This document shows, piece after piece, positions 11,692 through 31,070 of a DNA stretch of 64,000 nt (position 1 is the first letter of the stretch; every line of letters begins with the position of its first letter). Both the position numbers and the translations under genes were made by a program. A model generated the notes under the pieces. It was not told where the DNA came from. It did not search any database and worked only from the letters and a program-made list of their open reading frames with translations. The stretch spans positions 160,001-224,000 of the forward strand of contig CAWDKY010000015.1 of the NCBI GenBank assembly GCA_963802945.1. The letters run 5' to 3'. The stretch comes from an uncultured delta proteobacterium. Lineage in GTDB: Bacteria > Desulfobacterota > RBG-13-43-22.

Positions 11692-11831
11692 AGTTACACA
11701 TAACAAGATCGTAAGATGAAAATAAAATGAAGAAGTCTAAACCCTCATGTCAAACCTGCCTAACCCTGATGAATCAGGCAGGGCATGCTCCCCAATATCA
11801 ACACCGACAATCTTCAATATATTGCTAAAAC

Positions 11832-27315: not shown

Positions 27316-27522
27316 GTTTTTGTACCTTGGGATATGAGAATTAATTTTTTTTTGAAAAAAGTGTGCTCTGTATCGCGACACTAAGAATCCAGGAGTCAGA
27401 ATTCAGAATCCAGAATAGAAACATCAACTCTCCCCTTCCGGTACCTTCTGAATTCTGGCTTCTGGTCCTTGAATTCGAAAATGTTACCTGTGGTTAATAA
27501 TCAATTGGGAAAGAAGTCTTCC

Positions 27523-28535
27523 ATGATTGAAGCCCGGCTGTATGAAAAAGAAAAAGAGCAACGGGTTCGCTGCCGTGCCTGTCATCACCTTTGTCTGATC
27601 AAAGAGGGACAGCGGGGGATTTGCGGGGTCCGGGAGAATCGTCAAGGGACCCTTTATTCTTTGGTCTATGGAAAACCTATTGCTGCTCATGTTGACCCGA
27701 TCGAAAAGAAACCGCTCTTCCACTTTCTGCCCGGATCCGCTTCTTTTTCCCTGGCTACTGCCGGATGTAATTTCCGCTGCTCTTTTTGTCAGAACGCCGA
27801 CATTTCTCAGGCTCGAGAATCTAAAAAAGATTCCCGGGGAAGAGATTTCTCCTGAAGAAGTGATCGCCACTGCCATTCAAGCCAAGTGTCTGTCCATTGC
27901 TTATACCTATACCGAACCCACCATCTTTTTTGAATACGCCCAGGACATCGCCCTTCTGGCCGACGGGAAAGGTTTGAAAAATGTCTTCGTCACCAACGGC
28001 TATATGACCAAGGACGTGCTTGAAGCCCTTCATCCTCATCTTCACGCCGCCAATGTCGATCTGAAAGCCTTTCGAGAGGATTTTTACAAGACCCAATGCG
28101 GGGCAAAACTGTCTCCGGTTTTAGAAACCTTAAAAATCATGAAAAGGCTGGGAGATCTGGGTTGAAGTCACGACATTGATCATTCCGACTCTTAACGATT
28201 CCAGAGAAGAGTTAAAAGAATTGGCTCGGTTCATTGCCGATGATTTGGGCCCGGAGACGCCCTGGCATATCAGCCGATTCCATCCCACCTTTAAGCTTAC
28301 CCAATTGCCGGCGACTCCGGTCAAGACCTTACAGCAAGCTTGGGAAATCGGGAAAGAAGCGGGGTTGCGTTATGTTTACACCGGCAATGTTCCTGGAGAC
28401 GCGGCAGAAAAAACTTACTGCCATCATTGCGGCTATCTACTCTTGGATCGTTTTGGATTTTCCATTTTGAAAAATAATCTGCAAGAAGGAAAGTGTCCTC
28501 GCTGTCAGACTTCGATGGATGGATTCGGATTCTGA
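27523..28535 (+). CDS. amrS: AmmeMemoRadiSam system radical SAM enzyme (two frameshifts, probably assembly errors)
   Basis: DPIEKKPLFHF, CNFRCSFC, YTYTEP, WHISRFHP and YVYTGNV motifs spread over three frames; shifts near 27820 and 28150. Confidence 0.85.
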
Positions 28536-28619
28536 AAAATTTTCAAAGCAAAGGCAAGGGAGAAAATTTCACGACTTTTAAAAAAAATTATTTTTTTTTA
28601 AAAAAAATGCATTTTTTTC

Positions 28620-28648
28620 TTGACATACTATATATAGTTGTTTAGAAT
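28620..28648 (+). promoter_or_regulatory. Sigma70-type promoter
   Basis: TTGACA-17 bp-TAGAAT. Confidence 0.8.
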
Positions 28649-28672
28649 TTCCCCAAATACAATATATAGGAA
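28625..28672. promoter_or_regulatory. Tandem NrdR-box-like operators
   Basis: ataCTATATATAGttg (28625) and ataCAATATATAGgaa (28657), 32 bp apart; consensus is acaCwAtATaTwGtg. Confidence 0.65.
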
Positions 28673-28685
28673 AGGAGGAACTATC

Positions 28686-28867
28686 ATGGCAGCAACCAAA
28701 AAAGCAAAGGCTCCGGCAAAAAAGACTGTGAAAGGCCGCTCCCAAGAAAGCGCAAAACAGCAAAGAGCCCAAGCAAAAAGGCAATAGCCAAGAAGCCGGC
28801 TAAAAAAGCCCCGGCCAAAAAGGCTCCTGCCAAAAAGGCCAAGAAAGCCCCGGCCAAAAAGAAATAA
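28686..28867 (+). CDS. Histone H1-like Lys/Ala/Pro-rich small protein (frame disrupted in the middle)
   Basis: AAAGGAGG RBS; N-terminus MAATKKAKAPAKKTVK; C-terminus AKKPAKKAPAKKAPAKKAKKAPAKKK* in another frame. Not in the ORF track. Confidence 0.75.
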
Positions 28868-28918
28868 CCTTCTGGTTGTTGTGCTGTTGGGTAGTTAAAT
28901 AGTTACTTAACCTCTTAA

Positions 28919-28975
28919 AGGGAAGGAGGGAATTTCTTCCGTTGGAAGAAATTTCGATTTACCTTCCTTTTTTTT
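28919..28975. terminator. Likely bidirectional intrinsic terminator
   Basis: aagggaagg..gaatttcttcc gtt ggaagaaattt..ccttccttttttt between convergent genes. Confidence 0.65.
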
Positions 28976-31070
28976 ATTTTATGGGCGGGCATTTTTCGAT
29001 TCGACAGGGAAAGGCCCGCAGATTGGGAGTTCCCATGGCCGGATCGAACGGTTCACCGGCTGTCAGGATATTGAGATTGGACCTGTCCCAGTCAAAAAGG
29101 GTCGAAAGCCCCTCTTCAGGAAACCACCAACCGTAATCCAGAAAAACAACCCGCGGATCCAACTTTCGGACAGATGGACTTTTTGCTCTATCCGTCCTTT
29201 AGGGGTTATGATGCGGGCCCAGTCCCCTTCGATCAAATCGAGAATCCTTGCCGCCGCCGGGTGGATCTCCACGATCGGTTCCGGATGTTTCTTGCGTAAA
29301 CTGGAAATCTGGCGATGGGCCGAATGAAAAAAATTGGAGTTTTTGCAGCTGGTAGCCAACAAAGGATATTCCAGAGAAACCCCGGGAAGTTCTGAAAAAG
29401 CCGGCAGAGGATCAAATCCCCAATTTTTAAGTTGTGTCTGAAAAAAGTTCCACTTTTTTTGAAGGCGTCTTAAATCCATCGGCTTCATATTTTTTGTAGC
29501 CCCCTTTTCCTTTAAGCACTCCCATTTCCTTAAACTGTTCATACTTCATCCCTGCAGGGGCCAAAACTTCATCCAAGGCCTCATGGTAGTCTTCCCAAAA
29601 ATGTTCACCATGACCCAAGGCCTTGCCCAACTCCATCAAGATCTTAATGTCCGGCCAGCTTTCTCCCGGAGGTTCGACAATCTTGGGACGAGCTGAAATC
29701 CAGCCCTGGGCCAGACCATAATGACCGATATCATCGAATTCAAAACCGGTGGCCGCCGGCAGGACGATATCCGCCAGGGCGGCGGTAGGGGTCATAAAGA
29801 TTTCCGAAACCACCAGAAGGTCGAGCTGCATCAAGGCCTCATAGGTTCGATGGGCATCACTGTTGGTGATCAGGGGATTGGTTGCCTGGGCCACCATAGC
29901 TCGGACAGGATAAGGGTGATGGGTCAGGATGGCTTGAACAACTATCGGTGGGGGAACAACCATAAAATTCGGAACAAGGTTGAAGGCCCGGTTCAACATC
30001 TTTTGGGCTTTGTCCGGCAGCAGATCGGCTTTGACAAAATCAGCCAGCCGGGCGACCGGAGGCATGGAAGGCATTATATTTCCACCCGGCACATCCAGGT
30101 TGCCGGTAATGGCCATCAAACAAAGCAGCGCCCGGCAGGTCTGCAGACTGTTGACGGTTTGCTCGATGGCATTGCCCCATTGGATGACAGCCGGTTGAGA
30201 GGTGGCGTAAATCCAGGCCGTTTGTATAATCTCTTCCGGCGTCAGCCAGGTGAGGTCGGCTACACGTTCCGGAGTAAATTCCGCAACCCGCTCTTTCAAT
30301 TCCTGAAAGCCCAAGGTCCATTGATTTACGAACTCCCGATCAAATAATCCTTCGCGAATAATAATATGAATCAGGCCCAGGGCCAGGGCAATGTCGCTTC
30401 CCGGTTTTATTTGAAGGTGGCTTTGAGCAATGGAAGCCAGATGGGTTTGCCTGGGATCAATGACGATCAGGTCGGCCCCTTTTTTTATTGACTGAAGCAG
30501 ATGCAGTGCAATGATCCCTTCCTCGTTGCTTTTAAGAAGATTGCTGCCCCAGTTTAAAATAAGACTGGTGGGAACCTCATAATCCGGAATCGGGAAAAAA
30601 CCCACGGTCAACAAGCCGGCGATTTCTCTGGGCAGGTGATAGACGTGTTGAGGACCACAGACATTGGGAGAACCGAAGACATTGGCTAACCGGATCAGGA
30701 CGAAATGCTCCAATCCTTTAGGGGCTCCTTGGGCAAAGACCACGGCTTCAGGACCATGTTCCCGTCGGATGTGGTTCAGCCGTTCGGCAACAAATTGAAG
30801 GGCCTCGGTCCAGGATATCGGTTTCCATCGGCCTTCACCGCGAGCCCCCTGTCGGAGTAACGGTCTGGTCAGACGATCGGGGTGTCTTGTTCGTTCAGCC
30901 GAGGCCAAGCCCTTGGGACATATATAGCCGTGGGAGATAGAACATTGAGGGTCTCCCTTGATGCTGACAATCCGGCCTTCTTGGACCTCGACCAATAGTC
31001 CACAACCCCCATGATCCATCCGTGAACAGTGGGTTTTAAAGATGCGAGAATTTTGGTTTCCATGTTTCAT
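28974..31070 (-). CDS. Molybdopterin (bis-MGD) oxidoreductase, acetylene-hydratase-like clade (two frameshifts)
   Basis: N-terminal Fe-S segment C..MDHGGC...CPKG; HPDRL, GSPN and TPTAALADIVLP motifs; C-terminal molybdopterin-dinucleotide domain continues in shifted frames (near 29428 and 29160). Confidence 0.85.

Follow-up and report, generated by a model that had tools for sequence, protein, structure and literature searches.

We propose that a small gene of an uncultured delta proteobacterium encodes a polycation resembling the tail of histone H1, which is probably associated with the nucleoid. It is predicted to be repressed by NrdR loaded with dATP and ATP, and would be made together with ribonucleotide reductase (RNR) and the SMC condensin. 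On the strength of sequence comparisons, we give this reading a probability of about 0.68. The gene occupies positions 28686..28867 on the plus strand of the window, the stretch of 64,000 nucleotides that was analysed, and its promoter contains a pair of boxes of the type found at the genome's own RNR genes.

A conserved small gene downstream of amrS

As assembled, the gene, which begins with an ATG at 28686 and ends with a TAA at 28865-28867, carries two extra single bases near 28733 and 28752. Its Lys/Ala/Pro-rich frame is scattered across three frames, and no frame is free of stops from 28686 to 28867. Upstream lies amrS, whose fragments match successive portions of TIGR04337. With the C-terminal amrS fragment as an anchor, 15 orthologous loci were retrieved from the same bacterial family, spread over four genera and showing 71-93% AmrS identity; five further genomes of the family gave no orthologous amrS match with this anchor. 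Directly downstream of amrS, all 15 loci contain an intact ORF of 57-73 aa, accompanied in every case by the same promoter, boxes and terminator. The initial annotation of this DNA had read a Lys/Ala/Pro gene of ~58 aa at this position and had pointed to the region behind amrS in related genomes as the place where the same peptide and boxes should recur, and both expectations are borne out across the four genera. The relatives' ORF has an invariant start, MAATKKAKAP, followed by a conserved non-repeat core, with PAKK repeats and KKK at its end. Among 59 well-populated codon columns, the variable sites at codon positions 1, 2 and 3 number 4, 7 and 46, and a synonymous-only change is seen in 37 columns against an amino-acid change in 9. 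The third-position excess (4/7/46) therefore places the plus frame under purifying selection. An antisense ORF at 28684-28857 was considered as a gene and rejected: it is open in the relatives through composition, and the codon-position pattern fits the plus frame. We are left with very little doubt that the small H1-like gene is real. In one relative a second, partial pair of amrS and the H1-like gene is present on another contig (G014:C46:9044-9872), where the amrS copy has an internal stop.

Why, then, is the frame broken in the window? Both breaks are single extra G residues beside A runs, at ~28733 and ~28752. The initial annotation had attributed the broken ORF to indels in A runs; two one-base indels are indeed present, but they are extra Gs next to the runs, whose length is unchanged. 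The interval 27400-29600 was compared with contigs from four independent metagenome runs, which represent related strains sharing at most 0.28 of sampled words with the window. The related contigs are one base shorter at 28733 (X3) and at 28752 (X2 and X3). Further single-base differences, all coincident with frame breaks, lie at 27821, 27857 and 28153 in amrS and at 29161 and 29438 in a molybdopterin oxidoreductase gene, and at these positions the indels differ from contigs of three or four of the independent runs. The difference at 29161 is a missing T in the window, the other four are extra bases. In the assembled sequence amrS appears as three ORFs and the oxidoreductase gene as two (window 27469-28535 and 29063-31070). 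Among the orthologous loci, amrS is one open frame of 336-384 aa in 13 of 15, the other two having 254 and 187 aa. Because seven single-base indels fall within 2.2 kb and each of them breaks a conserved gene, the pattern argues for assembly error, not decay, and the frame breaks in the window are most likely of this origin. A true pseudogene, functional in the relatives and inactivated in this genome by two frameshifts, would explain the stops found in every frame, and the compared contigs are of related strains, not of the same strain. Such a pseudogene would nevertheless leave at least five more single-base indels in the same 2.2 kb to be accounted for, where the frames of amrS and of the molybdopterin oxidoreductase gene are interrupted; the relatives have an intact amrS, and scattered one-base indels have the look of assembly error. 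A pseudogene is thus highly improbable in our judgement. A frame that was really broken had been named at the outset as fatal to the proposal; what was found is a frame intact in all 15 relatives and related-strain contigs without the extra bases.

The promoter and its pair of NrdR-type boxes

The gene is preceded by a sigma-70-type promoter at 28620..28648 on the plus strand, in which TTGACA (28620-28625) and TAGAAT (28643-28648) are separated by a 17-nt spacer and together match the consensus at 11 of 12 positions; no second promoter-like site is present within 28400-29100. The -35 element is unchanged in 16/16 loci, and the -10 element is mostly TAAAAT among relatives. Upstream of the -35 element, on the same strand, a region of alternating A and T tracts (28577..28619) is partly kept in the 16-locus promoter alignment and may represent a UP element or curved DNA. 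The ribosome-binding site AAGGAGG (28672..28678, plus strand) has its GGAGG at 28674-28678, and 7 nt separate this GGAGG from the ATG at 28686; in the promoter alignment GAAAGGAGG at the ribosome site is invariant in 16/16 loci.

Into this arrangement two NrdR-type boxes are fitted, neither assigned to a strand. Box 1 (ATACTATATATAGTTG) lies at 28625..28640, inside the -35/-10 spacer, with its core CTATATATAG at 28628-28637; box 2 (ATACAATATATAGGAA) lies at 28657..28672, at the transcript start, predicted near 28655-28657, and in the 5' UTR, with its core CAATATATAG at 28660-28669. The cores are 32 bp apart and the full boxes are separated by a 16-bp spacer, which is invariant in 16/16 loci, as is the distance of 13 nt between box 2 and the ATG. 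The motif CWATATATWG occurs three times in the window against 0.10 expected, a count reached by none of 100 shuffles, and 23 times in the 4.37-Mb genome. Its occurrence at 11815, where a short-chain dehydrogenase gene begins, has no partner box and was treated as chance. In the available text of PMC13584703 and PMC12051234, an NrdR box is described as requiring C4 and G13, both critical, as well as A6 and T11, at least 63% AT in between and a 15-16 bp spacer. The window pair has all of these features: C4, A6, T11 and G13 are present in both boxes, and the sequence between C4 and G13 is 100% AT (75-100% in the relatives' boxes). Across the 16 loci box 1 keeps C4, A6, T11 and G13 throughout. Box 2 keeps C4, A6 and T11 throughout and G13 in 7/16, the other nine having G at position 14; a mutational study reports, in the part of PMC13584703 at our disposal, that a G shifted from 13 to 14 is tolerated in one box of a pair. 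An alignment of the 16 promoters gives a footprint with little or no change in the -35 element, in box 1, in the left half of box 2 and in the ribosome site, and with free variation before the promoter and from the -10 element to box 2. The two 16-mers 32 bp apart that had been noticed by the initial annotation, one in the -35/-10 spacer and one before the ribosome site, are therefore located as described, and their spacing is conserved in 16/16 loci, where a lack of conservation had been expected to count against them. The sigma-70 promoter, the ribosome-binding site and the separate terminator that it had read at this locus are likewise all found.

The transcript has features of its own at the 3' end. 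A conserved 3' UTR of ~50 nt (28868..28915, plus strand) can base-pair with a segment of the same transcript that holds the ribosome site, the start codon and codons 2-4. For the duplex between 28665-28709 and 28868-28915 the predicted energy is ~-25 kcal/mol; z lies at -2.5 to -3.9 in the genus and is weaker in two other genera, and pairing of both mRNA ends is also predicted in the full mRNA fold of one relative. Going by folding predictions of this kind, the pairing may influence how the mRNA is translated or how long it lasts; covariation cannot settle the matter, as the two partner segments hardly vary. The 3' UTR is followed by an intrinsic terminator (28916..28984, plus strand), a two-part hairpin and then a U run. 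The hairpin at 28916-28976 (-26.2 kcal/mol, z -3.2) recurs in the mRNA fold of a relative, and its arms vary among relatives, with changes that were assessed for compensation by eye, without counting. A search of Rfam returned nothing near threshold at the locus.

What would act on these boxes? The absence of nrdR had been named as another finding that would speak against the proposal; the genome has one nrdR, recognised by TIGR00244 with 188.6 bits against a cut-off of 124.65. The ORF of 154 aa has a CxxC...CxxC Zn ribbon and an ATP cone, and is matched to solved NrdR structures at E 1e-38 (1.3e-38 to PDB 9fvr). Asp15 and Arg17 are present, the residues reported to contact C4 and G13 in the available part of PMC13584703. 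The genome's own RNR genes carry comparable boxes. At the class III gene (nrdD type, PF13597) a TTGACA is followed by box 1 in the spacer and by a second box 31 bp on, and this is the layout of the H1-like gene's promoter; at the class II gene (nrdJ, PF02867) two boxes 31 bp apart overlap the -10 element. A weight matrix was trained on the family's nrdD and nrdJ upstream boxes only (72 sites, 49 unique, excluding one indel locus, paralogues and loci that lacked the anchor motif) and was used to scan both strands of the genome, 4,368,275 positions, with the H1-like locus outside the training set. Scoring both sites with an NrdR matrix had been suggested by the initial annotation, and the outcome favours it: box 2 scores 18.3 and ranks 4, box 1 scores 15.2 and ranks 21, in figures that are not independent of the conservation seen in relatives, as matrix and relatives all come from one family. 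Pairs above threshold and 30-33 bp apart number 14 genome-wide, and the pair at the H1-like locus comes third with 33.4, after nrdJ (37.7) and nrdD (37.4), both of which belonged to the training set. In a spacing control covering 16-69 bp, 8 of 14 strong pairs lie at 30-32 bp.

The protein and the genes that share the box pair

The H1-like protein is ~59 aa long in the window genome and 57-73 aa in relatives, whose proteins consist of 35-44% Lys, 33-42% Ala and 11-13% Pro, contain at most one acidic residue and 4-6 PAKK units, and reach a pI of 11.0-11.4. An Atlas model of one relative's protein has a mean pLDDT of 0.26, and disorder is predicted throughout. By sequence, the protein is similar to the C-terminal tail of histone H1 and stands outside the curated H1-like families. 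With HC2 (Pfam PF07382) one relative scored 15.4 bits, where the gathering threshold is 40, and two others had no match; among NCBIfam models, run with two relatives, NF038053 (hist_H1_lk_Burk) reached 19 bits against 80 and NF050153 (Rv3852_fam) 22.8 against 100. Membership in these Pfam and NCBIfam families was rejected, the matches being sub-threshold and driven by composition. No Pfam match to the globular winged-helix domain of linker histones was obtained at E up to 1 with three relatives' proteins. A homologous-protein search returned three weak matches among 1011 candidates, all of them proteins with PF07382, and did not recover the H1-like family itself; an Atlas search returned only unnamed small clusters of hypothetical proteins. 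With the family's own profile, 6 of 201 sampled genomes of the phylum were detected, all in one family (f1), and 0 of 195 genomes elsewhere. Because no curated family cut-off is reached, composition is what the protein itself offers in favour of a DNA-binding role, and such a role is further suggested by the genes that accompany it in the NrdR-type box set. We rate the odds that the product is a nucleoid protein as somewhat better than even.

The most prominent of these accompanying genes is smc. Tandem boxes are found upstream of smc in 21/21 genomes of the family, directly before a TTTACA -35 element (G000:C28:179330-179375, equivalent to L091:1031-1076, with a copy at G000:C15:272-317; relatives L094-L114 and L148-L175). 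In other families of the phylum, a survey of sampled loci with enough upstream sequence found a pair with a summed score of at least 18 at 16 of 27 smc loci; for scale, the same threshold yields 14 pairs over all 4.37 Mb of the genome. Requiring a score of 6 or more from each single box as well lowers the number to 14 of 27, and at seven loci nothing comparable is present. On the basis of sequence comparison, NrdR may be connected with condensin in much of the phylum. When the presence of nrdR is set beside that of the smc boxes, G038 has neither and G065 has boxes without a detected nrdR, in a comparison that includes only two loci from genomes without a detected nrdR. The start of contig C15 (G000:C15:153-600) repeats the smc-upstream region G000:C28:179211-179660 almost exactly, which probably reflects assembly redundancy or a second strain; the estimated contamination of the assembly is 6.7%.

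Other box pairs extend the set. A 61-aa Cys-rich ORF without a Pfam or NCBIfam match (G000:C32:42636-42895, L090:237-496; relatives L132-L147) has the same promoter-box layout in 16/16 loci, that is, a -35 element, box 1 in the spacer and box 2 at the transcript start. Two boxes 31 bp apart also lie ~120 bp upstream of a pilM-like gene (G000:C17:358784-358830, L093:785-831; L176 and L177), and this pair is kept in 3/3 genomes of the same genus; the gene was not found with the same query in three genomes of other genera. Fumarate hydratase was rejected as a conserved regulon member, with a box pair in 1 of 17 family loci only, that of the window genome. The promoter of its alpha-subunit gene (G000:C39:33474-33565, L089) closely resembles the box-bearing promoter of the Cys-rich ORF, and it looks as if the promoter module had been copied to the fumarate hydratase gene. 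The family regulon that we infer would therefore comprise nrdJ, nrdD, smc, the H1-like gene and a small number of further genes, with two chromosome-packaging genes among its members. It is not purely DNA-related, because the Cys-rich ORF and the pilM-like gene also carry pairs.

How far can the boxes and the protein be explained otherwise? The boxes are AT-rich and overlap promoter elements, which is a point against the operator reading, and some of the conservation of box 2 could have other causes because it covers the transcript start and borders on the ribosome site. The box-like sequences might belong to a strong constitutive promoter, kept as AT-rich parts of the promoter and leader, with NrdR inactive or acting on box 1 only. 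Such an explanation gains from the coincidence of both boxes with core promoter or leader positions, from the drift of the right half of box 2 among relatives and from the view, taken in the available part of the 2025 preprint 10.1101/2025.03.28.645925, that most isolated NrdR-box hits in E. coli and P. aeruginosa are false positives. It does not fit easily with the recurrence of the same C4/G13 palindrome at nrdJ, nrdD and smc at differing positions relative to the promoter, nor with a pair that comes third genome-wide under a matrix that never saw the locus, nor with a 32-bp spacing that is invariant in 16/16 loci when the region between the -10 element and box 2 is free to vary. We consider it decidedly unlikely and conclude that the window boxes are probably a functional NrdR operator. 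It is a separate question whether NrdR might control the gene while the product acts as a general polycation on RNA, ribosomes or polyphosphate, or as a counter-ion, instead of as a nucleoid protein. Similar polycations can bind RNA or polyphosphate. The fully disordered protein reaches the cut-off of no curated DNA-binding family, and the inferred regulon has members without a DNA link, namely the Cys-rich mini-ORF and the pilM-like gene. Working against a general polycation are the box pairs at smc in the family and in much of the phylum, which point to a chromosome-related theme, and the best weak family matches, all of which are to DNA-binding H1-like proteins (HC2, the Rv3852 family and hist_H1_lk_Burk). 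This possibility appears to us rather unlikely, and a nucleoid-associated product under NrdR control is the reading that we retain.

Proposed control and comparison with known systems

The H1-like gene would form a single-gene transcription unit whose strong sigma-70 promoter appears to be built into a standard NrdR operator. For characterised NrdR, tetramers loaded with dATP and ATP bind both boxes and ATP-only forms do not, as described in the available part of PMC12051234. By analogy, an NrdR tetramer with dATP and ATP would be bound to both boxes and would block RNA polymerase; as box 1 lies between the -35 and -10 elements and box 2 on the transcript start, bound NrdR should exclude the polymerase. 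A drop in dATP relative to ATP would free the DNA of NrdR, and the H1-like gene would be transcribed along with nrdJ, nrdD and smc. The H1-tail-like protein most likely coats DNA. What are the implications of such an arrangement? If it is true, the dATP/ATP ratio can govern how much of a nucleoid protein is supplied, and throughout a lineage of uncultured anaerobes genes of chromosome architecture have come under a nucleotide-sensing repressor. A broader version of the model is put forward tentatively, at slightly less than even odds. In it, NrdR in this phylum would be more than a repressor of reductases: it would sense dNTPs and regulate chromosome packaging, with RNR, the SMC condensin and, in this family, the H1-tail-like polycation under common control. 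Packaging proteins would then be produced while DNA is being synthesised, in a bacterial counterpart of the S-phase coupling of histones and RNR. The idea is directly testable with short DNA fragments and recombinant NrdR. Apart from this, the finding adds a conserved, easily missed small gene and flags single-base indel errors in the assembly.

The operator resembles those of RNR operons (E. coli nrdHIEF, nrdDG and nrdAB, S. coelicolor nrdRJ, L. monocytogenes nrdDG), which likewise have two 16-bp partly palindromic boxes. The shared features, as far as the available text of PMC12051234 and PMC13584703 describes them, include C4/A6/T11/G13, an AT-rich centre, a 15-16 bp spacer and overlap with the RNA polymerase site. 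A cognate nrdR with Zn ribbon and ATP cone is also encoded in the window genome. Unlike in these systems, the gene predicted to be controlled here is not a reductase gene. In the part of 10.1101/2025.03.28.645925 available to us, box pairs in E. coli and P. aeruginosa are placed at RNR operons only, and no non-RNR gene of P. aeruginosa is given more than one NrdR box. P. aeruginosa topA has been described as the first non-RNR target of NrdR (PMC4409342, in the portion available). As with topA and with Shewanella dnaA, the gene beside the box here would be one of DNA topology or replication type; unlike topA and dnaA, each of which is credited with a single box in the accessible text of PMC4409342 and 10.1101/2025.03.28.645925, the H1-like locus has a full pair at standard spacing. 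According to the accessible portions of the same two sources, one study reported that topA is activated and subsequent RNA-seq work reported it unchanged; at the H1-like locus a full pair overlaps the core promoter, and repression is therefore predicted. In the supplement of the proteobacterial regulon reconstruction PMC5343134, the NrdR figure, within the part available, gives nrd genes, yfaE, trxA, topA and a few locus tags; anywhere in the file, smc is no more than part of an unrelated locus tag, and the word histone is absent. In the literature accessible to us, partly as excerpts, no paper was found that links NrdR with histone-like, SMC or nucleoid-associated proteins, and a prediction of this kind may exist in Rodionov and Gelfand 2005 or in RegPrecise. 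NrdR is currently described as RNR-specific in these partially available sources, and conserved pairs at the H1-like gene and smc would depart from that description.

On the side of the protein, the closest comparisons are with Chlamydia Hc2 (PF07382), the Burkholderiales proteins of NF038053 and the mycobacterial Rv3852 family, all with PAKKA-type Lys/Ala/Pro repeats and a very high pI. The tails of AlgP and HupB are further bacterial H1-like polycations with repeats of this type. In common with such polycations, the protein has predicted disorder and would presumably bind DNA electrostatically. Unlike them, it is much shorter (57-73 aa), falls far below the family cut-offs, has a conserved non-repeat core and was detected with its own profile in one family only. 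It differs also from eukaryotic-type linker histone H1, of which only the tail is resembled, no globular winged-helix domain having been found. Eukaryotes couple the expression of histones and of ribonucleotide reductase to S phase. The system proposed here would be similar in that a basic, DNA-coating protein would rise with the supply of dNTPs, and different in that the coupling is predicted to run through a nucleotide-sensing repressor, whereas the eukaryotic one employs cell-cycle transcription and mRNA processing.
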